The position numbers and the translations under genes are program-made. A stretch of 64,000 bases of DNA from an uncultured Gemmatimonadota bacterium (lineage in GTDB: Bacteria; JAAXHH01), in the NCBI GenBank assembly GCA_951812955.1, contig OX638340.1:800001-864000 (forward strand), in the 5' to 3' direction. The stretch's first letter is position 1, and each line of letters starts with the position of its first letter. The notes under the pieces were generated by a model. That model did no database searches, was not told the DNA's origin, and was given only the letters and a program-made list of their open reading frames with translations. This document shows positions 15,391-38,324 of the stretch, one piece after another.

Positions 15391-15491
15391 TCCGGCTGCA
15401 CATCGCAAGCGCGTGCGAATCTTACAGAATGCGAGCCCGCAGGCTAAAGATCCAGTCAGGGCGGACTGGTATTTTCAAGGAGTATACGTAT

Positions 15492-16244
15492 ATGAAATTT
15501 AACAGCCGACTGAAGGAAGACTTCGACCGTGACGGATTCGTACTGGTGGAGGGTTATCTCTCCGCGGGAGAAGCGGGAGAAATAAACGACAATATCCAGC
15601 GCTTCATCGACGAAGTGCTGCCGAAATCGCCGGACACGACGGCCTTTTACGAGGACATGGACGATCCCGCGTCGATCAAGCGACTGCAAAACATGGCCGA
15701 CCTGGATCCTTATTTCGGGGAACTGTTTCAGTCCGATCGGTTCACCGAACTGTCTGGATTCCTGCTCGCGGACGAAGTGGTTCCCAAGAGCCCGCAATGG
15801 TTCAACAAACCTGCCCGGGTTGGCACGGTCACCCCGCCCCACCAGGATGGCTTCTACTTCATGCTGGAACCCAACGAGGCCATCACCCTATGGCTCGCGC
15901 TTGACTACATCGACGAGGAGAACGGTTGCATGCGCTACGTGCGGGGATCGCACAGGCGCGGCATGCGGCCTCATCGCTCGTCCAACGTTCTCGGCTTCTC
16001 ACAGGGGGTTTCGGATTACACAGATGAGGACCGGGACCGGGAAGTGGCCATGTGCGCCAAACCGGGTGACCTGTTCGCACACCACAGCATGGTCATACAC
16101 CGGGCGGACGCAAACCAGTCCGATCGCCGCCGCGCGGCCCTGGGCCTTGTTTACTTCGCGGCCCGGGCCAGGAAGGACGAGGAAAAGGCGGAACGCTACA
16201 GAAAAGAGCTCTTCGCCCGATGGGAGAAGGAAGGCAAGATCTAG
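15492..16244 (+). CDS. phytanoyl-CoA dioxygenase (PhyH) family Fe(II)/2-oxoglutarate oxygenase
   Basis: HxD facial triad HQDGFY, distal His HHSMVIHRADAN, and RYVRGSH. RBS AAGGAG 10 nt upstream of ATG 15492. Confidence 0.75.
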   Translation: MKFNSRLKEDFDRDGFVLVEGYLSAGEAGEINDNIQRFIDEVLPKSPDTTAFYEDMDDPASIKRLQNMADLDPYFGELFQSDRFTELSGFLLADEVVPKSPQWFNKPARVGTVTPPHQDGFYFMLEPNEAITLWLALDYIDEENGCMRYVRGSHRRGMRPHRSSNVLGFSQGVSDYTDEDRDREVAMCAKPGDLFAHHSMVIHRADANQSDRRRAALGLVYFAARARKDEEKAERYRKELFARWEKEGKI

Positions 16245-17537: not shown

Positions 17538-18653
17538 ATGGGCAGGGTCAGGGTGCTGGTAGGCACTCGTAAAGGGGCGTTTATCCTCTCAGCGGATGGG
17601 AACCGTAGAGACTGGGAAATCGACGGGCCTCATTTTGGAGGTTGGGAGGTCTATCACATCAATGGATCCAGGGTCAATCCTGATCGCCTTTACGCAGCCC
17701 AGGCCACCGGCTGGTTCGGCCAGTTGGTGCAGAAATCGGACGACGGGGGTAAAAGCTGGAACCCGGTGAGCAACAAATTCGCCTTCGAGGGAGAGGTGGG
17801 CACTCACCTTGATTTCGACGACACCCCCCGTCCCTGGGGATTCAAGCGGGTCTGGCACTTCGAATCTTCGCTTTCCGATCCGGACACCGTGTACGCGGGC
17901 GTCGAGGACGCGGCGCTCTTCCGCTCGACGGACGGGGGCCAGTCCTGGCTGGAACTCGCCGGCCTGAGAAACCACCCGTCTAGCACGGGCTGGCATCCCG
18001 GTGCGGGCGGCCTTTGCCTGCACACCATTCTACTGGACCGGGGCGACCCGAATCGGTTGATCGTAGCTATTTCCGTGGCCGGTGCCTTCCGTTCCCTGGA
18101 CGGCGGCTTTTCCTGGCAACCGATCAACCAGGGCCTGCATTCCGACTACATGCCTGAACCCGATGCCGAGGTGGGTCACTGCGTCCATCGGCTCGCGATG
18201 CATCCAATCCGACCGGACTTGCTGTTCATGCAGAGCCACAGGAACATCATGCGCAGCGACAACGGGGGAGATTCCTGGAGCAATGTGAGCGGCAACCTGC
18301 CCAGCGATTTCGGATTCCCGATCAGTGTGCACGCCCACGAACCCGAAACGGTCTATGTCGTCCCGATGAAGAGCGATTCCGAGCACTATCCGGATGAAGG
18401 CCACCTGCGCGTCTACCGGAGCCGGACCGGCGGTAACGAATGGGAGCCGCTGTCGTCCGGACTGCCGCAGAAAGACTGCTACGTCAATGTCCTCAGGGAT
18501 GCCATGGACGTGGATACGCTCGATGACTGCGGGGTATACTTTGGAACTTCCGGGGGAGCGGTCTACGTTTCCCCAGACGGTGGAGATCACTGGACGGCCA
18601 TCACGCAGAATCTGCCTCCGGTGATGTCCGTCCAGGTCCAGACGCTCCCATGA
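17538..18653 (+). CDS. BNR/Asp-box repeat beta-propeller protein (Ycf48/sialidase-like fold)
   Basis: Five SxDxGxxW Asp-box motifs: [40 protein letters not shown]. Confidence 0.75.
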
Positions 18654-18952
18654 TACGCGTCGTTCTGCCCCATCACCTGCGGAACCTGGCGGGATGCCGG
18701 GACAGGGAAGTCATCCTGCAGGTCGCCGGCGGGATCGTGACCCAGCGCAAGATCCTGGACGCGCTCGAAGCACGCTTTCCCCAACTCGGCGGTACGGTCC
18801 GGGACTACGAGACCGGTGCTCGCCGGCCTCTTGTGCGGTTTTTCGGCTGCGGAATGGACCTCTCCCTCGAATCACCCGACGCACCGGTGCCCGACACCAT
18901 TTCACGGGGCGAGGAGCCCTACCGGATCGTGGGTTCGGTCGCCGGGGGGTAG
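18650..18952 (+). CDS. MoaD/ThiS/CysO-like ubiquitin-fold sulfur-carrier protein ending in Gly-Gly
   Basis: 100 aa, [15 protein letters not shown]...[12 protein letters not shown]...IVGSVAGG*. C-terminal AGG and overall pattern resemble CysO/MoaD. ATGA start/stop overlap with the upstream BNR gene. Confidence 0.55.
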
Positions 18953-18960
18953 CCCTGGCC

Positions 18961-21207
18961 CTATTTCAACATTTTCACGATTTCATCATGCCCGGCTTTC
19001 TGCGCACGCGCAAACGGCGTAGCCCATTCCGCGCCCCCGGCACTGGGATCCGCGCCTCGTCCAAGCAGGAACTCCACCATGTCCCGGTGCCCCCAGCGCG
19101 CAGCCCATCCAAGCGGCGTCGAGCACCACTCGTCATCGATGGCTTCAATGGCCGCGCCGCGATCCAGCAACAGGGCGGCCTTTTCCACGTCACCGATCGC
19201 GGCCAGCTTGTGCAGGTAGGTGACGCCGTGCCAGTTGGCGTTATTGGGATCAGCCCCGCTGTCAAAAAACAGGTTCAGCATGTCCAGGATATCGTCATGC
19301 GGTCGCAAGGCGGCTCCGTCCAGTTTCCAGCCCTTTCGCCGTCTGAAGGCGTATCCCATGTAGTTGTTGGCGTACCACGGACGGTTCAGTTCGGCGCCAG
19401 CGCGGATCAGCATTTCGATAATCTCCTTGCGGGCGAATCCGGCTGCCATGCAAAGCACCCCGTAGTCGCCTCCGTAATTGGCCAGTCCTGGGTCCGCGCC
19501 GAGCAGTTCTCCAACGACCGGAATGTTATCTCTTAAAACGTACAAACCAATATCTGCCGTTGCACCGTGCTGATAGAGCAGGTTGATCATTTCCTCATTT
19601 TTGTCCCGTCCCAGTGCCTGGGTCAATGGATTGCCGCTCGACTCCACCGGCGCATTCGGGTCGGCTCCGCGTTCCAGCAGGAGTTTTGCGGTCTCGAGGT
19701 GATCGCCGGCTACGGCTTCGTACAACGCGTGACCGCGAGGCGCGTTGTACTCTGGCGCGTTGGGATCGGCCCCTTGGTCCAGCAGAAGTCGAACGATATC
19801 GGTATACCCCTGCCCCGCCGCGCTGTAGAGGGGGGAGAACCCGCAGGAATCCTGGTCGCTGACCAGGTTGCTGTCCCGCGCGAGCAGTTCCCGTACTCGC
19901 CGTTCGTCCCCCAGGGCACACGCGACGGTCATGCTGTATTCCGCTCCCCTCGCGACCAGGTATCCAGTCAGCAGCGGATTGGTCCGCCCCTGGGTTTTGC
20001 GGGCTCGAAACACGGCCAGGTGAAGGGGTTTGCATCTATCCCACCTTACCGGATCCGGTTCGGCCCCCAAATCCAACAGCAGGGCCGTCATTCCCAGGTT
20101 GTATTCTTCCACGGCCACGTGCAGCGGCCGACTGCCGCGTTCGTCGCCGGCGTTAACCAATTCCGGCGAGGCATTAAAAAACGCACGGGCCTCTTCCAGA
20201 TCGCCCTCCCGAACGATCTCGCAGGCGCGCTGGCCTACAGGGGGCGCTTCGTACCTGTTTGAAATCGCCTCCGTCAACAGTCCGGCGATCTCGTCGTATC
20301 CGCGGTCCCGGGCCCGATCCAGCGGCGGCACGTGGTATTCGAGTCCCGATGCCGAGGCGGGATCCGCGCCATGGTCGAGCAACAGGCGTACTGCTTCCGC
20401 ATGCCCTTCCCTGACAGCGAAGTGGAGCGGCTGGTAGTAAGCCCAGTTGCAGTTCGCCAGCCCCGGCTCTTTAAGCAACAGATCCTGGATCCTGGCCAGG
20501 TCTCCTTCAACCGCGGCCAACAGCATGTCCCATACCCTATCTGGCTTGCCATCCATGAAAAGACCTTGCTCGTTCGTGAAATCGGGTCGAATCCATTTCA
20601 TAACTCGGTCTCCGAATGCATCGTCCGTCGACGGCGCGTAATGATTGAGGTCCTGGTAAAGGACGCGGAAAAGACGGGGTTTCAGTTTGTTGCGGGCTTC
20701 GTAGAGCCGCTTGCGTACCGTGCCCGCTTTCAAACCCATGAACCCCGCGATTTCAGTCGGGGAATAGTCTCCAATATACCTCAGCAGCGTTACTTCTCTT
20801 AACGTCTCCGGCAGTGCTTCGACCGCCTCGCGGACCTTGTCGCTCAGGTCTTCGCGCGTAACCCGGTCCAGGGGACTTTCCCCGGTGGCCTGTAGTTTGT
20901 CCTCCATGGGCACAAGTACGTGGTTCTGACTTCTCCGGTACCGATAGCACTGCCATTGCACGATGCGTCGCAGCCAGGCCGGAAACGCGTCCGGTTCACG
21001 CAGCGACCGGATGTTCTGCCACGCGGCGACAAACCCTTCCTGCGTGGCGTCCTCCGCCAGGTGGCGTTCACCCAGGAGGCTTAGCGCGTAACCGAAAGCC
21101 ATGTCCTGATAGTAAGCCACCAGCTTGCCGAAGGCGAATCCTCGATCTGAATCGGGTACCGTGGCGTCCGTGGAGGCCTGTATGCATTTTAAAATATCGT
21201 TGGTCAT
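18961..21207 (-). CDS. ECF (group IV) sigma-70 factor fused to a ~550-aa C-terminal ankyrin-repeat domain
   Basis: Region 2 (...FVAAWQNIRSLREPDAFPAWLRRIVQWQC...) and region 4 (LREVTLLRYIGDYSPTEIAGFMGLKAGTVRKRLYEARNKL), followed by many ANK repeats (..PLHFAVREGHAEAVRLLLDHGADP..). Start taken at ATG 21207 (MTNDILK). Confidence 0.8.
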   Translation of the reverse strand: MTNDILKCIQASTDATVPDSDRGFAFGKLVAYYQDMAFGYALSLLGERHLAEDATQEGFVAAWQNIRSLREPDAFPAWLRRIVQWQCYRYRRSQNHVLVPMEDKLQATGESPLDRVTREDLSDKVREAVEALPETLREVTLLRYIGDYSPTEIAGFMGLKAGTVRKRLYEARNKLKPRLFRVLYQDLNHYAPSTDDAFGDRVMKWIRPDFTNEQGLFMDGKPDRVWDMLLAAVEGDLARIQDLLLKEPGLANCNWAYYQPLHFAVREGHAEAVRLLLDHGADPASASGLEYHVPPLDRARDRGYDEIAGLLTEAISNRYEAPPVGQRACEIVREGDLEEARAFFNASPELVNAGDERGSRPLHVAVEEYNLGMTALLLDLGAEPDPVRWDRCKPLHLAVFRARKTQGRTNPLLTGYLVARGAEYSMTVACALGDERRVRELLARDSNLVSDQDSCGFSPLYSAAGQGYTDIVRLLLDQGADPNAPEYNAPRGHALYEAVAGDHLETAKLLLERGADPNAPVESSGNPLTQALGRDKNEEMINLLYQHGATADIGLYVLRDNIPVVGELLGADPGLANYGGDYGVLCMAAGFARKEIIEMLIRAGAELNRPWYANNYMGYAFRRRKGWKLDGAALRPHDDILDMLNLFFDSGADPNNANWHGVTYLHKLAAIGDVEKAALLLDRGAAIEAIDDEWCSTPLGWAARWGHRDMVEFLLGRGADPSAGGAEWATPFARAQKAGHDEIVKMLK

Positions 21208-21431
21208 CGTCTGCCGTTGGGTTTCACCTGCAGCATCATTAATTAGTGAAATTCGTATTAAACTAGTACCATAAATCCTACCAGACGTTACAAATAGTTG
21301 ATAGATTGACACCACATTTTACGATTTCCGGGAATCGAAGCCGATCAGGCGGGCTGAATGATCACGAATATGATGAGATGAACAAAAGTCAACCGTAGCA
21401 AGTCGTTTACGTTGAATGTGGGGATAGCGCT

Positions 21432-21803
21432 ATGACCGACCTGAAAGTAAGCGCGCTCAGGGTTTTTGTCCCATCTAAGGACCACGAAACTTCGACCCGG
21501 TTCTACGAGGACCTCGGATTCGAAGCGGTCTGGTCCGGCCATGGGGTGACTGAGCTGCGGATTGAAGGATTCAGCTTTTTCCTTCAGAACTACTATCAGA
21601 AGGAATGGGCGGATAACTTCATGATACAGTTAAGGGTATCGGACCTGGATGCGTGGTGGCGGCACATCGTGGATAAGGATCTCGTGGCGCGATATGAGGG
21701 CGTCCGTGCCGCGGAGCCCAGGGTCCAGCCGTGGGGGCTTCGCGAGATCAACCTGATCGATCCCGCCGGCGTACTGTGGCACATCGCCGAAGAGCGGGAC
21801 TGA
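21432..21803 (+). CDS. VOC-family protein (glyoxalase/bleomycin-resistance fold)
   Basis: 123 aa; LRVFVPSKDHETSTRFYEDLGFE ... REINLIDPAGVLWHI. Confidence 0.7.
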   Translation: MTDLKVSALRVFVPSKDHETSTRFYEDLGFEAVWSGHGVTELRIEGFSFFLQNYYQKEWADNFMIQLRVSDLDAWWRHIVDKDLVARYEGVRAAEPRVQPWGLREINLIDPAGVLWHIAEERD

Positions 21804-23976: not shown

Positions 23977-26488
23977 TTACCGGGGTCCTCGCACCGCCGT
24001 GGAATCTATCGCTTTAGAACCGGGCGTGGAGGCGCCGCCGAACAGACTGAGCCGGCCCGAGATCGCGGCTTCCACGTCCAGGTCGTAAACCTGGGAAATG
24101 GTGGTAACGATGGGACGGATCTGCTTTTCAATGTAATGACCGTAATCAACGGGCGCGTCAAGCTGGCCTTCCGGTTGAGGTCCGTCTCGCGTGATCACGT
24201 ACCGAATGACGCCGGTGGGATTGTCCATGAGTCTGGCGGCCTTTACGTGGGGCGGTACCGAGCGCGTGTAGAACTCCACCGGTTTTCGCAGGTTCTTTCT
24301 GTACACCAGCAGGTCGTCTTTTTGCCCGGACTGTACAGAGAGGACCCACCTGAAGATCTCGTCTTCGATCTCGACACCGGGCGATTCGTGAAATACCCGG
24401 TCGAGCAGGACGGCCTGCAGCTGGTGCGCCAGGTCGGTCCAGTCCCTTCGTACTGCTTCCATCCCGACGATTTCCACCCGGTCGCCATCGCGGTCGCGTC
24501 TGAGCCCCGCGTATCCCTTGGCCCGTCCCCGTTCGCTGTCCCCCCGCATGGATGGCAACAGAAACCGGTGGTAGTGCTTTTCCAGTTCCAGTTCGAGAAA
24601 AGAGGAAACGCCATACCGCTCCTTGACGTGCTCGGCAAGCCGTTCGTTGATACGATTGCACACCGCGCCACCGAGCCTAAGGGCTTCACCCGGATCGGCA
24701 AGGTCTGGCGCGTTCAGATCGACGAAAACCGAGTCGGTATCCCCATACAGCACCTTGTAGCCGTCTTTCTCCAGCTCGTCGCGACACCACCTTAGAATGT
24801 AGTGGCCGAACTCGGTGATTGCGCCGGCCAGCTGGGGCGCGGCGAATCGGCAGGAAGCCGACGCCAGCACGCCGTAGAACGAATTCATGACGATCTTGTA
24901 GGTGAAGGAAGCAAGGTCGTCGCCGCTGGCCTTGGCCTCCTCGCGGCTTTTAAAGAACTGCTCCAGCATGGAGGGCAGGATGCCGGGCGTTCGGGTGAAT
25001 CGCGCGCCGTTGGGCGCGGTAAGACAGTCATCTTCGTCCATCTCGTCCCGTGCCTCGATATGGGCCAGGGGATCGATGTTGAAGGTTCGTATGATGGACG
25101 GATAAAGGCTCTTGAAATCAAAGACGAATATGTTCCTGTACAGCCCTGCCTTCGACGGTATGATGAGCCCCCCCGGCGCGCCGGCGCCCGGGGTACGGTC
25201 CACGCCGGTTGTCGGCGCCACCATGCTGCGCTGATGCAGGGCGTTGATGTAGATATTGTCGAAGGCGGCCACGCTCACCCAGGCGCGTTCCAGTGGCAGG
25301 CCCGTGAGCAGTCCCCTGCGCAAGGTAAGGTTGATCAACCCTTCCGCTTCCAGGATATCCAGAACCAGCCGGGCATCCTCCAGGCAATAGGCGCAGAAGA
25401 GGTTACGGTCCTCGCGATAGACTTCCGTGATCTGCTCCGCCCTCGAATTCCCCGAATCCTCTTCGAGCAGCTTACCCCGGCCCAGGATGGCGTGGGCCAC
25501 CGTGCCCAGCCGGTAGTCATCGAACCTTTGCAGCGTGCCGCGCAGGAGATGCAGGGCATCCAGGATCTGGCGCCCGTGGATGACCATGGTGCTGCCGCCC
25601 CAAACTTCGCCGGACCGGTACCAGGACTGGTCCGCCGTCCGCCCGAGCTGAAAAGGCACGTTCAGGTCCCTGAAGCGCCGTTGCAGCACTTTCATATCGA
25701 AGTCGACCAGGTTCCATCCGGTGAGCAGGTCGGGATCCATTTCGAGCAACCTCGCCGACACACCGCGAAGCATCGACGCCTCGTCGGCCCAGCAGACCAG
25801 GGAGGCCGGGTCACCCGGAGCGGGTGCGCCCACCATGTGGATTTCTTCCGATTCGACGCCCGAGATCGTATCCGCGAGGATCAAGCCGACGGCGTAAATG
25901 GTGGTCGCTTTCGGATCCGTTTCTATGTCCAGAGCCAGTACGCGGAATGACGGCTCCCAGTAAGCAGGCTTCAGCGTAGGGTTGGCATACACTCGGTCGA
26001 CCCGGTCGCCGGGCGTCCAGGAACCGCTGATCCGGACGCCGCCGCGCAATCCAAGTCCGATCAGGAACTGTCTGCCGAAAGGCAGGTCGCCTTCGTAACT
26101 TCGCGTGCCCTGGGCCTCGAGCCCTTTGGCCAGGCCGCGCTGATCCCGTACGCGGTCGCACTGGACGCCGACCACCGGTTCGCCATCCATGGTTGTGTAT
26201 TCCGACGGGACTAACCGTGCCGTGACCTCGTTGGAACCGATCCGGTCGGATGCCGCCTGCGTTTCCGAGGTCCTGACGAAGAGTGCAGGAGAAACGCGAT
26301 CATCCGTAAACAGGAACGTATGACCACCCTGGAGCTTGCCGACGCCGCAGATGACGTCACGTCCGCGCTCCGTGCGATGAAAGACGTGGAGCAGGTAGCC
26401 TACGTCTCCTCCGCCATCCGGGGATTCGTGCTGATCCGCGGGGTCACTGGACGGAAGTGAGCGATCCCTGCCGGGGTTGTGTTCAGTT

Positions 26489-26502
<14 letters not shown>
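23977..26502 (-). CDS. polB: DNA polymerase II (family B, PolB)
   Basis: Exo motif LALDIETD; pol motifs [34 protein letters not shown]. Confidence 0.9.
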
Positions 26503-29446
<2,944 letters not shown>

Positions 29447-30763: not shown

Positions 30764-32332
30764 GTGACCTTCACGCCCAATGGACCGCATTCTTCCGCCG
30801 TGCATGCCGTTCTGCGCCATCGGGGCGGCCTCGCCCCGGAGCTGAGGCCCGATCCGACGCTCTTCCAACGAGTCGGGGGCCGATCCGTGATCGCGAAGGT
30901 AATCGACGGGCTGTACGACCGGATCGAAGTAGATTCCGACCTGCGTCCGATGTTTACCCGGACATTGGCTCCGGAACGTATGAAACAGAAAGCCTTCCTC
31001 GAAGAATGGATGGGAGAAGAACCGGGCTATACCCATCATCACGCCTACGGCGGAATCAAAAACCGCCACGGGCATATTCACATCACGCCGGAATCCGCGG
31101 AACGGTGGCTGGCGCACATGACCGATGCGTTGCTCGAGCATGTGAGGGATGACCGGCTCGTGAACGAAGCGCTGGCCACCCTCGGTCCCCTCGCCCGCGG
31201 ACTCGTCAACGAGAAGAAGCCACCAGAAAGCCCCGGACAACTCAGATGCTTCAGGGAAAAACGATGGAGACAGCCGGCCAAAATGGCGGCCAGGGGACAG
31301 ATGGAAGCACTCGAGAACTTTCTCGAGGAGGATTCCACGGTATTGGGCGATCCTCGTCACAGCGCAATCATCCTCGCGGAAGCGGCGCTGAGGGGCCATA
31401 CGCGGGTCGCGGCCCTGCTGCTTGACCGGGGGGTGGACGTAAACATACCATCTGCCCATTCGAGCGATATCATGATGACCGCCTATTGTGCCGCGCGAAG
31501 CAAGAGAAAAGACGAAACGGCCGGTTACCTGGCGGACCGCGGCGCGGTGTACGATGTCTTCAGCGCCTGTTTTCTCGGAGACATGGACCGGGTTGCCGTC
31601 CTGCTCGAAGCCCATCCCGGCCTGGTCAACGCAAGCGACCCCGCCTGCGACCTGTTGCCCGTGACCCCGTTGCACCATGCCGTGTACGGCGGCCATGAAC
31701 CCGTCGCCAGGTTCCTCTTTGAACGTGGCGCGGAGACCGGCGTGAACAGCACAGCCCTGTTGAAATACGCGGCGGAACGGGGACAGGCGAGCCTGGTCCG
31801 GTTGTTGCTGGCACACGGGGCGGATGCTTCGAGGATCGGTTGCGGCCGCTGGGTCGTCGATCCCGAGATCTCCGCGCTCCTGCTCGCCCGCGGCGCGGAC
31901 GTGAACTATCCCGATGGGAATTGGGTCTGGACGGCATGCACGGGAAACAACAGCCAGCGGGACGACCCCGCCTACGTGCAGGCACTGCTGGACAAGGGGG
32001 CCCGGATCGATACGGTTCTGCGCGGCGCCCAGGCACTGCACTTTGCCGCAAAGGCGGGATTCACTGGGGTCATGGAAGTGCTGTTGGAAAACGGGGCGCC
32101 GGTCGACGGGCAAAATGACGATGGCGAAACCCCCCTGTTCTACGCGCTGAAGGCGGGTCCCAGGGCCGATGTTGTCAAATCCGTGGAACTGCTGTTATCC
32201 CATGGCGCAGATCCGAATATTGAAGACAGGCTGGGCAAGACGCCCCTGGGAAATGCCTGCCGGATGAAGCGTCCCGATAAAGCTCGAATCGTCTCGGTGC
32301 TCGAAGCGGCTAGTCCTTCCTTACCGGCGTAA
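30764..32332 (+). CDS. truncated hemoglobin (2/2 Hb) N-terminal domain fused to an ankyrin-repeat domain
   Basis: Globin part: LFQRVGGRSVIAKVIDGLYDRIEVDSDLRPMF...KQKAFLEEWMGEEPGYTHHHAYGGIKNRHGHIHITPESAERWLAHM (the trHb pattern, with proximal-His region). Then seven or more ANK repeats (..TPLHHAVYGGHEPVARFLFERGAE..). Start codon uncertain (GTG/ATG near 30764). Confidence 0.65.
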   Translation: MTFTPNGPHSSAVHAVLRHRGGLAPELRPDPTLFQRVGGRSVIAKVIDGLYDRIEVDSDLRPMFTRTLAPERMKQKAFLEEWMGEEPGYTHHHAYGGIKNRHGHIHITPESAERWLAHMTDALLEHVRDDRLVNEALATLGPLARGLVNEKKPPESPGQLRCFREKRWRQPAKMAARGQMEALENFLEEDSTVLGDPRHSAIILAEAALRGHTRVAALLLDRGVDVNIPSAHSSDIMMTAYCAARSKRKDETAGYLADRGAVYDVFSACFLGDMDRVAVLLEAHPGLVNASDPACDLLPVTPLHHAVYGGHEPVARFLFERGAETGVNSTALLKYAAERGQASLVRLLLAHGADASRIGCGRWVVDPEISALLLARGADVNYPDGNWVWTACTGNNSQRDDPAYVQALLDKGARIDTVLRGAQALHFAAKAGFTGVMEVLLENGAPVDGQNDDGETPLFYALKAGPRADVVKSVELLLSHGADPNIEDRLGKTPLGNACRMKRPDKARIVSVLEAASPSLPA

Positions 32333-33347
32333 TGTCTTTCAAAAACTTAACAAGAGATTTTCGCTCCGCCGTCGGGCCGTGTATTTCAATCCCCACTTCC
32401 GCCCATACCAGCGGCGTCGTGCCGTGTTCATCGTCTGTCGCGGCGGGATCGGCGCCGGATTCGACGAGCAACTTCGCGATCTCCCTGTTCCCGCATAGAT
32501 GGAGGGGCGTCTGCCCGAAATCCGCACGGGCGTTAGCATCCGCTCCCCAGTCCAGCAGCGCCCGGACCGTATCCTCCCATCCATGCTGAACCGCGGCGTG
32601 AAGTGGCGTGCCCACCACGGCGTGGACGCCGATCTTTCCCGAATATGCTGTGACACCCCCATCTCTTTTGTGGACCTGGCGTAGTTCGTCTGTCCTTCCA
32701 AGCGCCGCAAGCTGGCACGGGTCGGCCGGCGCGCCGCGCGCAATCAGGAATTCCGCGACCGCGCGGCACCGCTCCCCGCGGGAAAGGGCCGCGCCCAATG
32801 GCGTGTTGCCCTCGCTGTCGAGCGTATTCAGGCGCGCTTGGTGGTCGAGAAGCAGCCCGGCCGTTTCGACTGACATGGCCACGTGGAGGGGTGATACTCC
32901 GCCTAGGTCAGGGCGGGCCGCCGCTTCAGGATCTTCCGCGAGAATCGCACGAACGGTAGAGACGTCATCTAGCAGGCACGCGGCGTGGATGTCGACCCTG
33001 GCGCCCCGGTCCCGCAATAGAGCGGCGGCCTCAAGGTGTCCCCAGTGTGCGGCCAGGTGCAAGGCGCTCCAACCGCCGTAGGAATCGGCGCCGTGGTTCG
33101 GATCCGCTCCATTCCGCAGCAGCAATTCGATCACCCTCGTATCCCCGCGCTCGGCCGCCAGTTGTATAGGCACGGGACGGCCTCCCCAACGGGGATGGGC
33201 CACCGGTTCATTAACGATACCGGGCTCACGGGAAAGGACTTCTTCGACCTGCTCCGGGTCACCCTGCCAGATGGCGGCTCGCAGTCGTTCCTTCGCCGTC
33301 TCGCCGTTCCGGGCCGTCTGACCGCCGGGTTCAAGGGGAGTGGACAT
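32310..33347 (-). CDS. ankyrin-repeat protein
   Basis: ANK repeats (..SALHLAAHWGHLEAAALLRDRGARVD..; ..TPLHLCGNREIAKLLVESGADP..). Start chosen at MSTPLEP (ATG 33347, RBS AAGGAAGGA); the ORF is open to 33470. Confidence 0.8.
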   Translation of the reverse strand: MSTPLEPGGQTARNGETAKERLRAAIWQGDPEQVEEVLSREPGIVNEPVAHPRWGGRPVPIQLAAERGDTRVIELLLRNGADPNHGADSYGGWSALHLAAHWGHLEAAALLRDRGARVDIHAACLLDDVSTVRAILAEDPEAAARPDLGGVSPLHVAMSVETAGLLLDHQARLNTLDSEGNTPLGAALSRGERCRAVAEFLIARGAPADPCQLAALGRTDELRQVHKRDGGVTAYSGKIGVHAVVGTPLHAAVQHGWEDTVRALLDWGADANARADFGQTPLHLCGNREIAKLLVESGADPAATDDEHGTTPLVWAEVGIEIHGPTAERKSLVKFLKDITPVRKD

Positions 33348-33534
33348 CGGTCTATCCTTCCTTTCTCCATGTTCTGTCATCGAACGGTCGAACGATTCGT
33401 CGATGAATGGGTGTACGTTTACACGATCCAGCGTAGTGGAAAGGCTGGAGGGGAACGGTATTGGGCCCATGATCTGTCCGTCCGGGTTCCTGCCGGGATA
33501 GGTTTTTTCAGGCGACGGCTCTTGTTTTTCGGAG

Positions 33535-35843: not shown

Positions 35844-37577
35844 TCAGGAAACGGCACCGGCTTCCCGCAGACGGTCCGCGATGGACGCGTGCCCGTACCG
35901 TTCCGCCCAGGCGAGCGGTGTGGTCCAGGGTTCCCCATCGGGCTGAGGATCGGCACCGTGCTGGAGATACAGTTCGACCAGATCCTCGCGTGCCCAGCGG
36001 GACGCCCAGGCGAGCGGCGTGGAGTGGAGCAGCGTGTCCCTGCCTTCGAGCGTGGCGCCGTGGTCGAGAAACAGGCGGGCGAACTCGATCCGCTCGTCCT
36101 CTCTCAGCACCGGCTCTCCCCAGACCTTGCCCGTTGCCGCGATATGATGAAGGAGGGATGTGTCGCGCCGGCCCTTCACGTTCGGGTCCACCCCGTGGTC
36201 GAGGAACATGCGTACGATATCGGGGAATATGGATCGATCGAAATCACGGTACTGGCGATGGGGACAACAGGGCCAGAGACGAATAGGCTGGATGATCAGA
36301 CCGTACCACCGGGGGTCGTCCAGGGCCCAGTCCAGTTTGCGCAGGCACACGCCCACCACGCTGGGATCACCGCCGCAGGCGGCCCCCCAAAGAATCTCCT
36401 CGACCAGTTCAGGCTTGAGGCTCAGCGCCATGACCGCCGCAGAGGTATCGCATTCCAGGGCCGCACTGTCGGGAGTCATCGAACCGCCGTACCTGTAGAG
36501 CAGACGCTTCATGCGTTCGTCCCTGTTGTTGTAGGCGCGGCTCATGGGATCGCCAGACGCGTAAACGGCGGCGTTAGGATCGGCACCGCGATCCAGAAGC
36601 AGTTGCGCGATGTCGTACATCCCGTCGCCCGCTGCGATCCAAAGCGGTTCGCCCCAGTTGTATGTTTCTTCTTCCAGGGATTGTATTCGGTACCGCTGGT
36701 CCGGGTCCATGCCGAGATCGAGCAGCAGCTTCACCATCTCGTATCGTTTATGACGGACAGCATCACCCAGCAGGTGGGTTTCGGTTTCAATATCCGGTTC
36801 GAACTGGTCCTGGTGACTTTCCGCGATCTGACGTACGGCTTCCAGGTCTCCAAGCATGACACTCGTTCGAAGACTTCGCGGGGCCCCCGCGGTCATCAGG
36901 ATGCCCGCGGCCATGAAACAGCCTTCAGCCCGGCGCCTGTCCGTTGCGACGGTTTGTTCCGCAGCCAGCTCGAGCGGAGTCCGGCCCTCCAGGTTGGTCT
37001 TGCCCGTATCGGCGCTGGCAGTCAGCAGCGCTTGAACGAGACCGGGATAGCCGTGGCTGGCGGCGTGGTGCAGGACCGTGTTTCCGTTCTCGTCGCAGGC
37101 CTCCGCTAGTTCGGGCGTTTCGTGTATATCCCGCATCGCGCCCGCCACATCGCCATCCTCCACTTTTCGGGCGAGCAGAACGACCTCTGGGGAAACGGTC
37201 AGGTTCGGACAGAGGTTCGCCTCGCGTCTCCGCTCCAGTTCTTCATTGATTGTTTCTATGATATCACCGAATCCGCGGTCGCGAGCCATAGCCAGGGGCG
37301 TGGACGCGTCCCTGTGGGGATAGACCCCCTGGTTGGGATCGGCGCCCGCGGCCATGAGTGCGGAAACGGCTTCCGTCTGGCGGTTTACCACCGCGTGATG
37401 CAGGGCACGGTGCTCATCGAAAGAAGCCGTATCCACACCCACCAGGTGGGGTGCGACGGCCAGAATGGTATTAAGGCGTTTCATGTCTCCGGCGGCGGAC
37501 GCCTGGCACAGTTCGGCCACGGTGAAGACGCCGGAGGTCATCCCGTTCGTCATGATTCCTTCTCCTCGATTCGTCAT
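35844..37577 (-). CDS. ankyrin-repeat protein (577 aa)
   Basis: Many ANK repeats (..TVLHHAASHGYPGLVQALLTASAD..). Two alternative ATG starts (37577, 37553) created by a 24-bp tandem duplication; overlaps the upstream SRPBCC stop (ATGA). Confidence 0.85.
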   Translation of the reverse strand: MTNRGEGIMTNGMTSGVFTVAELCQASAAGDMKRLNTILAVAPHLVGVDTASFDEHRALHHAVVNRQTEAVSALMAAGADPNQGVYPHRDASTPLAMARDRGFGDIIETINEELERRREANLCPNLTVSPEVVLLARKVEDGDVAGAMRDIHETPELAEACDENGNTVLHHAASHGYPGLVQALLTASADTGKTNLEGRTPLELAAEQTVATDRRRAEGCFMAAGILMTAGAPRSLRTSVMLGDLEAVRQIAESHQDQFEPDIETETHLLGDAVRHKRYEMVKLLLDLGMDPDQRYRIQSLEEETYNWGEPLWIAAGDGMYDIAQLLLDRGADPNAAVYASGDPMSRAYNNRDERMKRLLYRYGGSMTPDSAALECDTSAAVMALSLKPELVEEILWGAACGGDPSVVGVCLRKLDWALDDPRWYGLIIQPIRLWPCCPHRQYRDFDRSIFPDIVRMFLDHGVDPNVKGRRDTSLLHHIAATGKVWGEPVLREDERIEFARLFLDHGATLEGRDTLLHSTPLAWASRWAREDLVELYLQHGADPQPDGEPWTTPLAWAERYGHASIADRLREAGAVS

Positions 37578-37593
37578 GATTCCTTCTCCTCGT
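37546..37593. repeat. perfect 24-bp tandem duplication (TTCGTCATGATTCCTTCTCCTCG[A/T]) spanning the RBS/start junction of the SRPBCC-ankyrin gene pair
   Basis: Read directly. On the coding (minus) strand each copy carries GGAGAAGGAATC-ATGA, that is RBS, ATG and the overlapping TGA. Confidence 0.6.
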
Positions 37594-38074
37594 TTGAGTC
37601 GTCGTTACCCGCGACCAGGTGGCCGTACCGATCCACGTAAGTCTTCATGAGATCGTCGTAACGGTCTTCTACGGTGGTCCCGGCCAGATACGGTCCCAGG
37701 TGGTCGATGAAGGCGTGCCAGCCCGCGGCGAAACCCATCAGGATATCCGGGGTAACGTGGGAATTCGTGAATCGCAGCCGTGTGCCGCCTTCACGGGGTC
37801 CAAGCTCCCATCTTAGCACGGAGAGTCCCCAGGTATAGGCGAACACCCGTTCAGGCGCCCATTCACAGACAATGCCCTCCAGGTTCCCTTCTGATTTGAA
37901 ATCCACGAAAAACCGGCCGCCGATCCGGCGCTCCAGCGAGGTCTCATACTTCATCCACGCAGAGATTCCGTCCGCCGTCGTGACGGCATCCCACACCCGG
38001 GAGACCGGATGGGCGTACGTCCGTTCGATTTCTATACAGTATTCCGGCGTTATCCTGGCCAGAGATTCTGCCAT
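37574..38074 (-). CDS. SRPBCC-superfamily protein (AHSA1/Aha1-like, START/Bet v1 fold)
   Basis: 166 aa; ...VWDAVTTADGISAWMKYETSLERRIGGRFFVDFKSEGNLEGIVCEWAPERVFAYTW... is the AHSA1-domain pattern. Confidence 0.65.
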   Translation of the reverse strand: MAESLARITPEYCIEIERTYAHPVSRVWDAVTTADGISAWMKYETSLERRIGGRFFVDFKSEGNLEGIVCEWAPERVFAYTWGLSVLRWELGPREGGTRLRFTNSHVTPDILMGFAAGWHAFIDHLGPYLAGTTVEDRYDDLMKTYVDRYGHLVAGNDDSNEEKES

Positions 38075-38324
38075 CTCGATCTCACTTCTTTAGTGTCCGT
38101 TAGCACGGTTGCCGTTACTAATAGTGGCTGTTTCAACAGCTAACGTTACAAATACTGAAATTGCGGTTGATGCCGCAAAACTCTATCTGCAAGGATCTGC
38201 GATCCGATGCATTTCCGAAACGTTTCGACAGGCGCACGCTGGCGATGCGCATATCGACGTTTGTATTGACAGTACCGCACGGTGGCACTAACCATGTTTT
38301 AACGGTATATTATTGGAGATGAAA

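Follow-up and report, generated by a model that had tools for sequence, protein, structure and literature searches.

One gene in the 64-kb stretch of DNA analyzed here (the window) joins, in a single polypeptide, the intact sigma2-sigma4 core of an ECF sigma factor through a conserved helical linker to an entire ankyrin-repeat (ANK) protein of ~540 aa, and no anti-sigma factor is encoded nearby. We read the product as a tethered, partner-sensing, autoregulated one-component ECF sigma factor and assign this reading a probability of about 0.5. ECF sigma factors form one of the largest signaling families in bacteria, and a co-encoded anti-sigma factor is typical of them but not obligatory. How ECFs without anti-sigma factors are controlled is still open for many groups, and the fusion bears on that question. 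The gene and the parts of its product are located as follows.

18961..21207, minus strand: ECF sigma-ANK fusion gene, 748 aa plus stop, a single ORF with Pfam and NCBIfam domains.
20923..21123, minus strand: sigma region 2 (aa 29-95), PF04542 (Sigma70_r2), 54.5 bits against a cutoff of 24.
20683..20841, minus strand: sigma region 4 (aa 123-175), PF08281 (Sigma70_r4_2), 45.5 bits against a cutoff of 25.7.
20545..20682, minus strand: post-sigma4 linker (aa 176-221), conserved, with P192 invariant across fusions.
18964..20544, minus strand: ANK module, termed ANK-A (aa 222-748), four repeat clusters, with Pfam Ank matches and AlphaFold helices.

The longest ORF at this position runs unbroken over 18961..21315 (minus strand), and the ATG at 21207, its codon 37, is a start common to all orthologues of the fusion. 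A longer GTG start would take in the conserved promoter-like motif described below; ATG 21207 is therefore likely the true start. The preliminary description had reported an intact ECF sigma factor and a long ANK array in one ORF, and this was confirmed by the unbroken frame and by the Pfam and TIGR02937 matches (NCBIfam TIGR02937, sigma70-ECF, 86.1 bits against a cutoff of 42.9). It had also allowed for two genes separated by a stop or frameshift, an explanation that we rejected: the frame is continuous, and the sole "split" orthologue (locus L010) has one in-frame stop inside a sigma4 helix, beyond which the frame continues. That stop, together with the truncation of some database entries of the fusion, could be taken to mean that an assembly or sequencing error has joined two genes or that the fusion is decaying. 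However, the same 748-aa ORF is present in many independent assemblies and sources, and the modules and the linker are kept residue by residue across phyla, a conservation that effectively refutes an artefact or pseudogene and leaves it a negligible probability. The exact 748-aa protein was found in NCBI/ENA on a 3.81-Mb contig, and both modules occur in 74 of the 273 homologues collected; the fusion cannot be a product of chance or assembly.

The orthologues of 748 aa are 59-93% identical to the fusion, and more distant fusions are 30-49% identical. A search for other ECF-ANK fusions, suggested in the preliminary description, revealed that they are not rare: about 40 of the 150 top representatives (clusters at 50% identity) are full-length fusions. 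MAGs that carry them come from at least seven phyla (Gemmatimonadota, KSB1, Poribacteria, Zixibacteria, Acidobacteriota, Chloroflexota, and Bacillota), and GenBank names the proteins only "sigma-70 family." These comparisons show that the architecture is old and widespread and that it has been kept under selection.

Within the sigma core, the Pfam scan detected neither region 3 nor region 1.1. Alignment of 47 fusions showed that D53 and Q56 are invariant in region 2, that at least 90% of the proteins share F75, W78, R80, C87, R89, and R92, and that the region 2.2-2.4 motifs D53-x-x-Q56-E-x-F and F75-P-x-W78-L-R80-R-I-V...C87-x-R89-x-x-R92 are kept. The closest solved-structure relatives of the core in a sequence search were SigW, SigE, SigH, and RpoE. 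By its domains and its putative core-binding and -10-recognition residues, the protein belongs with the ECF (group 4) sigma-70 factors. Residues 95-108, between sigma2 and sigma4, have a pLDDT below 50 in the full-length AlphaFold model, which indicates a predicted flexible linker between the two regions. Members of the same sigma clade carry swappable C-terminal modules, including SecA-, PheRS-alpha-, and F1-ATPase-like, GNAT, and TPR modules. A genome scan found an extension of at least 112 aa in all 28 best-scoring sigma relatives, and a search for close unfused relatives with the sigma domain alone returned only fragments and weak matches. With an extension of ~570 aa, which is longer than 50 aa and conserved in the clade, and without an anti-sigma factor, the fusion would qualify as a one-component ECF.

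The gene neighborhood agrees with this assignment. As described previously, no anti-sigma gene flanks the fusion: among the ~20 neighboring proteins scanned, none had an anti-sigma domain (zf-HC2, RskA, or other Pfam), and none was found in the orthologous loci L005-L010. The divergent VOC/glyoxalase gene reported upstream (21432-21803, plus strand) has a Pfam match. The downstream neighbor is a 100-aa ORF (18650-18952, plus strand), and its convergent orientation stands. The MoaD-like identity given to it, for which there is no Pfam match, is plausible by eye only, because its beta-grasp-like sequence ends in GG.

A sigma factor without an anti-sigma partner could be held inactive in cis, as in ECF41, with the ANK solenoid or its first cluster folded onto sigma2/sigma4 and blocking core binding until a ligand or partner alters its conformation. 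This is the documented mechanism of SnoaL-type extensions (PMC8999054); it is in keeping with the absence of an anti-sigma gene among the neighbors, and the conserved linker could position the ANK module. However, AlphaFold modeled each domain confidently and gave no fixed inter-domain geometry, with a pTM of 0.72 for the full-length fusion, in which ANK makes up 73% of the chain, and of 0.48 for a 416-aa natural truncation without ANK clusters III-IV. Neither of the two runs, which used shallow alignments (28-65 sequences), placed ANK confidently in a fixed arrangement with sigma2/sigma4. With these values and a linker pLDDT of 64-69 in the full-length model and below 50 at aa 209-218 in the truncated model, the docking on sigma2/sigma4 considered in the preliminary description was not borne out, although absent predicted docking argues only weakly against in-cis contact. 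The same sigma clade and linker also carry unrelated SecA, PheRS-alpha, ATPase, and GNAT modules, which argues against a module-specific docking surface, and free copies of the ANK module are conserved in genomes without such a sigma factor. We consider inhibition in cis unlikely, and the models point to an ANK module that is flexibly tethered to the sigma core. When the fold of the model was compared with PDB structures, the matches were limited to generic ANK solenoids, DARPins, and tankyrase ARCs, with low global TM-scores (0.17-0.29), and provided no functional lead.

The tether itself has a defined layout. The last sigma4 helix extends to about aa 190 and is followed by A191-P192-S193, a short helix (D-x-x-F198-x-x-x-V202), and M203-K-W-I-R-P-D-F. 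Among the fusions, S193 is conserved in 43 of 46, F198 in 41 of 47, and V202 in 36 of 47, and the same linker is present in sigma relatives bearing non-ANK modules. Such a linker could serve for processing, in the manner of p105 or a pro-sigma factor: regulated cleavage at the APS linker of an inactive or tethered precursor would free a sigma factor of ~22 kDa and an ANK protein. In a variant of this explanation, an internal start at M203 would yield free ANK-A from the same mRNA. Cleavage is consistent with an exposed linker in which the proline is invariant and P-S is present in at least 90% of the fusions whatever the module type, and proteolytic activation is established for other extension-bearing ECFs; however, no protease gene is linked to the fusion. 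As for the internal start, a natural stand-alone orthologue (P0018) begins exactly at the Met aligned with M203, and GGAG(A/G) lies 8-9 nt upstream of the M203 ATG in four orthologues. However, Gly is often encoded by GGA here (26-32%), and comparable GGAG-ATG pairs are found at codons 426 and 599, which makes an internal Shine-Dalgarno sequence indistinguishable from chance. The M-x-W-I-R-P-D segment is also wholly missing from many fusions. Taken together, processing by either route seems to us quite unlikely.

The ANK module has Pfam Ank, Ank_2, and Ank_4 matches that reach aa 748 (Ank_2, 155.8 bits). In the AlphaFold model, ANK-A (~527 aa) has 36 predicted helices with pLDDT mostly above 90. 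A GD...LL...P.L.N cap opens each of the four clusters, at aa 235, 335, 433, and 560. Together with ~10 GA(D/E)P repeat ends, this fits the initial estimate of more than 10 repeats and ~550 residues. Free ANK proteins of ~540 aa cover the whole ANK part (70-75% of the query) at 37-46% identity, and ANK-A aligns end to end with a 46%-identical Paenibacillus protein. Members of this stand-alone family, for example, in Paenibacillus ginsengarvi and Bacillus haimaensis, are collinear with aa ~203-748 of the fusion and share with it the non-canonical motifs APRGHALYEAV, VESSG, and PWYANNYMGYA. Unlike the fusion, they have neither the sigma core nor the linker, and their genomic contexts vary, with an ECF gene two genes away only at a Verrucomicrobiota locus. 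By its collinearity over all four clusters, ANK-A is a member of this family. The idea that the ANK part is a dedicated regulatory appendage therefore has to be replaced by that of a complete copy of an autonomous, widespread protein, while its proposed role as a protein-interaction or input module is credible. In the ANK tree, which, like the sigma tree, is an NJ tree without support values, fusions are intermixed with free forms. A close relative has lost only the sigma part at the same locus; its syntenic stand-alone orthologue is 81% identical, starts at M203, and was found on 7 contigs from two independent assemblies.

A promoter-like motif upstream of the fusion gene recurs upstream of a second operon in the window, which encodes a free paralogue of the ANK module.

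21263..21294, minus strand: candidate ECF-type promoter of the fusion gene, TTTGTAACG-N15-GGTACTAG, ~57 nt upstream of the ATG.
38090..38152, minus strand: tandem motif copies upstream of the AHSA1-ANK-B operon, found by exact match and PWM.
37574..38074, minus strand: AHSA1/SRPBCC-family gene, 166 aa, PF08327 at 52.9 bits, first gene of the candidate target operon.
35844..37577, minus strand: ANK-B, stand-alone paralogue of 577 aa (569 aa in databases), collinear with the fusion.

Five orthologous upstream regions, one of them from a non-syntenic orthologue with 59% identity, all contain TTGTAACG unchanged, with (G/A)(T/C)ACT in fixed register. The motif can be written as TTGTAACG-N17-ACT(A/T), with TGTAACG at -35, a 17-nt spacer, and (C/T)AC(T)A at -10, and its copy at the fusion gene has a PWM score of 35.4 bits. 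In the window, TGTAAC-N15-19-ACTA has two exact matches (0.14 expected), with 38090-38152 as the only place other than the fusion gene, and no more than three sites exceeded 14 bits in the PWM scan, each of them preceding the fusion or AHSA1-ANK-B. The tandem copies, 38121-38152 (TTTGTAACG..CCACTAT) and 38090-38121 (TTAGTAACG..GACACTAA), are direct repeats 31 nt apart. The AHSA1 stop overlaps the ANK-B start (ATGA), and ANK-B aligns collinearly with aa 214-748 of the fusion (30% identity, E = 2e-53). Two relatives of ANK-B (P0298 and P0300, 60-61% identity) are ECF fusions themselves.

The AHSA1-ANK-B motif is kept in register in an 82% orthologue (L097) despite spacer turnover, and it is degraded at L095, which is contiguous with the sigma-less locus L011; there, GTAAC has become CTAAC in the -35 part and ACTA has become CCGA in the -10 part. 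No motif was found upstream of the 71% ANK-B orthologue at L096 or upstream of the distant fusions at L008, L009, and L015-L024, and the motif is therefore lineage-specific. A metagenome scan for ANK-B loci yielded only two, of which one was too close and the other truncated. TGTAAC-type -35 elements are typical of ECFs, whose autoregulated promoters combine a -35 containing AAC with a short -10 at a spacing of 16-17 nt. The motif might nevertheless serve another sigma factor as promoter or an unrelated transcription factor as operator, with the regulon of the fusion elsewhere; its direct repetition upstream of AHSA1, its absence from the distant fusions, and its -10 part (ACTA/ACTT, and ACCA in L013), which differs from the usual ECF "CGT" type, could be understood in this way. 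However, the 17-nt spacing, the orientation, and the distance to the start codons (48-57 nt) fit promoters, and so does the -35 part. In each of the four orthologue lineages examined, the sigma gene is also preceded by the motif, which has decayed precisely in the genome that lost the sigma domain. We regard an unrelated operator or promoter as highly doubtful, and we infer a candidate promoter of the fusion from the geometry of the motif, its conservation, and this one natural loss.

The island that surrounds the fusion contains a UvrA-like gene, PolB, an HhH-GPD glycosylase, VOC and DinB-like genes, and five more ANK genes. At L096, the neighbors of the ANK-B orthologue include a Y-family polymerase and UvrC, and an MGMT-like gene neighbors a Paenibacillus ANK homologue at L001. 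As the weakest step of our reading, the island content suggests that the output may be linked to genotoxic or electrophile stress. These DNA-repair-type and ANK genes, and an ANK family that is clearly functional in its own right, could also mean that ANK is the output, with the sigma core bringing an ANK scaffold and bound factors, such as repair enzymes, to RNA polymerase or promoters. However, the support for such a cargo role is purely contextual, and it would leave unexplained both the SecA-, PheRS-, and ATPase-like fusions of the same clade and the co-variation of the promoter motif with the presence of the sigma domain. We consider it very unlikely.

For the preferred reading, a tethered and partner-sensing sigma factor, we propose the following course of events. 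The sigma core would direct RNA polymerase to the motif sites at the fusion gene and at AHSA1-ANK-B, resulting in positive autoregulation and induction of AHSA1-ANK-B. The ANK module would be the input, acting as a flexibly tethered protein-binding scaffold and not as a rigid in-cis clamp, and a cellular partner engaging it would sequester or release the sigma core. The induced free ANK-B could compete for the same partner, which would provide feedback. Control by protein interaction has been proposed for ECFs with TPR (ECF42) or WD40 (ECF57) extensions, and in these ECFs contact with sigma4 is predicted for the proximal part of the extension alone (PMC8999054).

The ANK fusion may be one case of a more general, undescribed design, a possibility that we put forward tentatively and hold to be doubtful. 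One ECF clade with a conserved linker would carry swappable full-length copies of cellular proteins as sensors or decoys (the ~540-aa ANK protein, SecA, the PheRS-alpha core, F1-ATPase alpha/beta, GNAT, and a bifunctional-nuclease domain). Sigma activity would report whether the free cellular counterpart engages the fused copy, or whether that copy is perturbed in the way its counterpart is, and in the ANK case, the loop would be closed by sigma-dependent induction of the free paralogue, much as in NF-kB p105/IkB. If the pattern of SecA, PheRS-alpha, and ATPase copies holds, it would amount to a modular wiring of transcription to the state of core cellular machines and could supply portable parts for synthetic sigma-based sensors. 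The fusion adds ankyrin repeats, a classic eukaryote-type protein-recognition fold, to the known sigma-fused input modules. It also offers a testable circuit with a candidate promoter, a candidate regulon of two operons, a natural sigma-less control strain, and a possible feedback paralogue.

An ANK-type extension does not appear in the main text of the ECF classification paper (Casas-Pastor et al. 2021) or among the 26 extension-bearing groups listed in a 2022 review, and no relevant literature was found on ECFs fused to ankyrin, SecA, or tRNA-synthetase. The earlier impression that no ankyrin-fused ECF group had been described thus agrees with that main text and the review list. Judged by these two sources, the ANK-extended ECF is a previously undescribed variant of one-component sigma factors.

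Among known systems, ECF42 (TPR; Streptomyces venezuelae Sven_0747) resembles the fusion in that it lacks an anti-sigma factor and carries a long series of protein-interaction repeats at its C terminus, and a partner-dependent mechanism has been proposed for it, the proximal segment of the extension alone being predicted on sigma4 (PMC8999054). The fusion differs in its repeats (ANK instead of TPR), in the length of the extension (~550 versus ~200 aa), in carrying a full copy of an autonomous family, and in having no YCII-type neighbor at its locus. ECF41 (SnoaL-like; Mycobacterium tuberculosis SigJ) likewise has a C-terminal domain of the same polypeptide in place of an anti-sigma factor. However, the fusion has no SnoaL/SnoaL_2-like match in Pfam, SigJ is not among its sequence matches to solved structures, and the compact in-cis docking that defines ECF41 was not predicted for it by AlphaFold. 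ECF57 of the Planctomycetes also bears a repeat-type interaction extension (WD40-like) on an ECF core, but the repeat fold is another one; ECF57 has two conserved cysteines that link sigma2 and sigma4, and a single cysteine, C87, is conserved in the fusions. MzaA of the MZA anti-phage system (NCBIfam NF041931) is a sigma-70-family protein with ANK-like repeats as well. Membership in this family was rejected, as the fusion scored 66.8 bits against a cutoff of 800, with the best stretch in the ANK part (aa 677-748); none of the partner genes MzaB-E is present at the locus, and PADLOC gave only generic ANK matches. In NF-kB p105/IkB of eukaryotes, one protein contains both a transcription factor and the ANK repeats that inhibit it, and free ANK paralogues are induced. 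The DNA-binding parts of NF-kB1 p105 and of the fusion are not homologous, and no ANK-sigma interface was predicted by AlphaFold for the fusion. The likeness is one of logic only: both combine an N-terminal DNA-targeting factor with a C-terminal ANK array and have free ANK paralogues, one of which is among the candidate targets of the fusion.

The fusion of an ECF sigma factor to ankyrin (ANK) repeats is encoded by a single unbroken ORF on the minus strand (18961..21315 in the ORF listing of the window), in which an ATG at 21207, 36 codons into the longest ORF, yields a product of 748 aa. The N termini of all fusion orthologues lie at the equivalent of this ATG and read MT(N/D/E)(D/E)(I/L)…, and a longer GTG-started version would contain a conserved promoter-like motif, which points to ATG 21207 as the likely true start. 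A 3.81 Mb contig in NCBI/ENA encodes the exact 748-aa protein, and its near cluster members have no annotation beyond 'sigma-70 family RNA polymerase sigma factor [Gemmatimonadota bacterium]'. The preliminary description had placed a divergent VOC gene on the 5' side and a convergent MoaD-like gene on the 3' side, with no flanking anti-sigma gene. This arrangement was confirmed, and a domain scan detected no anti-sigma domain within about 25 kb around the fusion. The convergent gene is a 100-aa ORF with a C-terminal GG, coupled to a BNR-repeat gene, and had no Pfam match. The protein is organized as follows:

aa 29-95, Sigma70_r2 (sigma2), Pfam
aa 95-108, sigma2-sigma4 linker, disordered, pLDDT below 50
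aa 123-175, Sigma70_r4_2 (sigma4), Pfam
to about aa 190, extended last helix of sigma4
post-sigma4 linker, A191-P192-S193, a short helix D-x-x-F198-x-x-x-V202, then M203-K-W-I-R-P-D-F
aa ~222-748, ANK module (ANK-A), 36 helices in four clusters

After sigma4, ANK-family Pfam matches continue up to the final residue, and the clusters open with GD…LL…P.L.N caps at aa 235, 335, 433, and 560. The general NCBIfam ECF model TIGR02937 was passed (86.1 bits; cutoff, 42.9), and none of the specific NCBIfam subfamily models was. PDB searches by Foldseek and by sequence returned generic ANK arrays only, with low global TM-scores; the matches included tankyrase ARC clusters, which fits a multi-cluster shape and not a single superhelix.

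Fusions of this kind are widespread. The search for other ECF-ANK fusions proposed earlier recovered about 40 full-length examples within the top 150 matches of an exhaustive HMMER scan against 1.84 billion 50%-identity representatives, and both modules were present in 74 of the 273 proteins collected. Three kinds of relative emerged from a word-indexed search: 748-aa orthologues (59-93% identity), distant fusions (730-960 aa; 30-49% identity), and numerous stand-alone ANK proteins, ~540 or ~637 aa in length, that match the whole ANK part at 37-46% identity. A genome scan keyed on one sigma2.2 peptide pattern, which samples phyla and is not a census, placed full-length fusions in MAGs of at least Gemmatimonadota, KSB1, Poribacteria, Zixibacteria, Acidobacteriota, Chloroflexota, and Bacillota. 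A single sigma signature (QDMAxGYA…LGDxHLAEDAAQEAF…FPxWxRRIVxxxCxRxxRR) and an invariant linker proline are common to the fusions. One orthologue (L010:5001-7247) appears split into 164-aa and 546-aa products by gene callers. A two-gene reading was rejected: the frame is interrupted by just one in-frame stop, within the sigma4 recognition helix (GTV*KRLFEAR), and this stop is a nonsense mutation/pseudogene or a (long-read) sequencing error.

The ANK module also occurs by itself. Stand-alone homologues of ANK-A were found in Paenibacillus, Bacillus, Verrucomicrobiota, and Bacteroidota in differing genomic contexts, and free and fused modules interleave in nearly every subfamily of a neighbor-joining tree of 107 modules (no support values). 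At a syntenic locus (L011:5001-6671 and L012:5001-6671; seven contigs, two independent assemblies), a free ANK-A orthologue with 81% identity is present and the sigma part and divergent VOC gene are cleanly missing. In this sigma-less genome (L011 plus L095), AHSA1-ANK-B, globin-ANK, PolB, and ANK-A are contiguous over about 12 kb. A collinear free paralogue, ANK-B (35844-37577; 30% identity, E = 2e-53), is also encoded in the window; its relatives elsewhere at 60-61% identity are ECF fusions with an identical linker type. By these comparisons, the ANK module is an autonomous protein. The free orthologue begins MRWVRPDF, the counterpart of M203; that the fusion undergoes linker processing or uses an internal start is nevertheless quite unlikely in our estimate. 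A same-strand 251-aa ANK gene lies 26 bp downstream of an 84% fusion orthologue (L005:8273-9028, L006:8273-9028), and the distant fusion P0043 is preceded at 79 bp by a 563-aa ANK gene, again on the same strand (L009:4231-5922), suggesting that sigma-ANK and free ANK genes may often be co-expressed. A helical domain of ~100 aa without a Pfam match, ending L-x-x-A-Q-F-x-V-A-R-E-x-G-F-x-S-W-x-x-L, is N-terminal on ~637-aa free ANK proteins (P0044/P0085) and C-terminal on ECF-ANK fusions of 840-885 aa (P0027/P0031/P0033), and is a third mobile module.

The preliminary description regarded the ANK domain as a candidate in-cis regulator and asked whether it docks on sigma2/sigma4. Docking was not predicted by either of two AlphaFold models, both built from shallow alignments and judged without PAE. 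The full-length model was confident per domain (mean pLDDT, 86; linker pLDDT, 64-69), with a pTM of 0.72, about the value expected from the rigid ANK module alone (73% of the chain). P0024, a natural 416-aa truncation comprising sigma2-sigma4, linker, and ANK clusters I-II and thus run without clusters III-IV, gave a pLDDT of 80.6 and a pTM of 0.48, with aa 209-218 below pLDDT 50. An in-cis clamp, in which the ANK module folds onto sigma, is unlikely.

The sigma domain belongs to a group in which other extensions take the place of ANK. Each of the 28 sigma relatives that scored best in the genome scan carries a C-terminal extension of at least 112 aa, preceded by (A/R)PS(R)D..F or LP(D/E)xF, as in the ANK fusions. 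Among the closest relatives (L025-L042; about 34-45% identity to the sigma domain), Pfam identified the following extensions:

L034:349-3240, SecA
L031:5050-6699, F1-ATPase alpha/beta domains
L027:170-1408 and L033:4064-5464 (two different phyla), PheRS-alpha catalytic core
L025:1674-3575, GNAT plus DUF3471
L028:2740-4935, bifunctional-nuclease domain
L026 and L041, TPR

Several further extensions in this clade had no Pfam match. In a neighbor-joining tree of the sigma domains (no support values), sigmas with non-ANK extensions intermix with ANK-fused ones. Outside this group lie most of the plain ~190-aa ECFs, although core identity is comparable in a few sequences without an extension (L043-L047). 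One ECF clade thus appears to carry interchangeable 'cellular-protein copy' extensions, of which no description was found in the literature searched. That the ANK module is cargo delivered to RNA polymerase is unlikely. Further undercharacterized extension types are found in another group of ~1050-aa ECF proteins from Clostridia/Oscillospiraceae MAGs (L056, L071, L073, L076, L080, L092; 30-33% sigma identity), in which a DUF3108-like segment forms part of a long extension, and in a Bacillaceae ECF (L070) with pentapeptide repeats.

The fusion gene lies in an ANK-rich island (15429-40243) that includes the following genes:

23977-26502, minus strand, family-B DNA polymerase (PolB), interleaved operon
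26489-29446, minus strand, UvrA-like, interleaved operon
30764-32332, plus strand, globin-ANK
32310-33470, minus strand, ANK, 386 aa
33574-34452, plus strand, ANK, 292 aa
35844-37577, minus strand, ANK-B, 577 aa
38313-39119, plus strand, ANK, 268 aa

The minus-strand operon runs UvrA-like-PolB-DUF1801(/OmdA)-VOC-HhH-GPD glycosylase, and the island also holds DinB_2, PhyH, additional VOC, Pol-beta-type nucleotidyltransferase, and ZIP transporter genes; as context only, this gene content hints at a link to genotoxic or electrophile stress. Globin-ANK, a second unusual fusion that joins a truncated-hemoglobin (Bac_globin) domain to ANK repeats, is kept beside PolB in relatives (L005:1-766, L011:1-574, L095:5695-7383), and its domains hint at possible O2/NO sensing. 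A PhyH-family Fe(II)/2-oxoglutarate oxygenase is encoded near ANK genes here (window 15429-16244, plus strand) and again at two further fusion loci (L005:10973-11725; L009:3325-4143). Eukaryotic FIH hydroxylates ANK repeats, and putative ANK hydroxylation by analogy is a lead. A MacB_PCD/FtsX-type permease adjoins two non-syntenic fusion loci (L007:8339-10741, L008:8834-11867), one with a PadR regulator, and may be a recurring neighbor or a coincidence. By their record titles, several host MAGs (L017, L019, L022, L029, L064) are Poribacteria or have bin names suggestive of a sponge origin; ANK-protein expansions are known in sponge symbionts, and habitat may explain the island.

Alignment of the regions upstream of the fusion gene and four orthologous loci, including one non-syntenic orthologue at 59% identity, revealed invariant TTGTAACG, with (G/A)(T/C)ACT 17 nt beyond it in all five. 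Within the 64 kb window, TGTAAC-N15-19-ACTA has two matches (0.14 expected), and a PWM scan yielded only three sites above 14 bits:

21263-21294, own site of the fusion gene
38090-38152, two tandem sites, 17-48 nt upstream of an AHSA1-family gene

The AHSA1-family gene is translationally coupled to ANK-B, and a conserved motif of ECF geometry is common to the fusion gene and the free-paralogue operon. With one locus per state, the motif is in register despite spacer turnover in L097 (82% ANK-B orthologue; read at the ANK-B locus only), whereas both copies are degraded in L095 (80%), with GTAAC changed to CTAAC or GCAAC, CACTA changed to CACCG, and the distal -10 deleted. The 3' terminus of L095 matches the beginning of sigma-less L011 at 100% identity, indicating that both lie in one genome; retention in L097 and decay in L095 are what sigma-promoter co-dependence predicts. 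The motif was not found upstream of distant fusions or of a 71% ANK-B orthologue (L096). That the shared motif belongs to another regulator is improbable.

Within one polypeptide, the ECF core is intact and is followed by a conserved linker and a complete ANK protein of the autonomous type, and the fusion is widely conserved without an anti-sigma partner. We infer that it is an autoregulated one-component sigma factor, in which the flexibly tethered ANK module would act as the input via partner binding and sequestration, and the AHSA1-ANK-B operon would be a target of the sigma and a possible feedback element.

The fusion belongs to the extension-bearing ECFs. The main text of the classification paper (Casas-Pastor et al. 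2021) and the 26-group table of a 2022 review give SnoaL, TPR, WD40, Cys-rich, DUF1835, and transmembrane/anti-sigma-like extensions and no ANK extension; to that extent, the earlier statement that no ankyrin-fused group was known holds. Membership in ECF41, ECF42, and MzaA was rejected on the defining domain tests of each. The chief interest lies in the modular sigma clade and a testable circuit. ECF42 (TPR) and ECF57 (WD40) are nearest in logic, ECF41 (SnoaL) is nearest as a studied mechanism, and the circuit logic of the proposed scheme resembles that of NF-kB p105/IkB.
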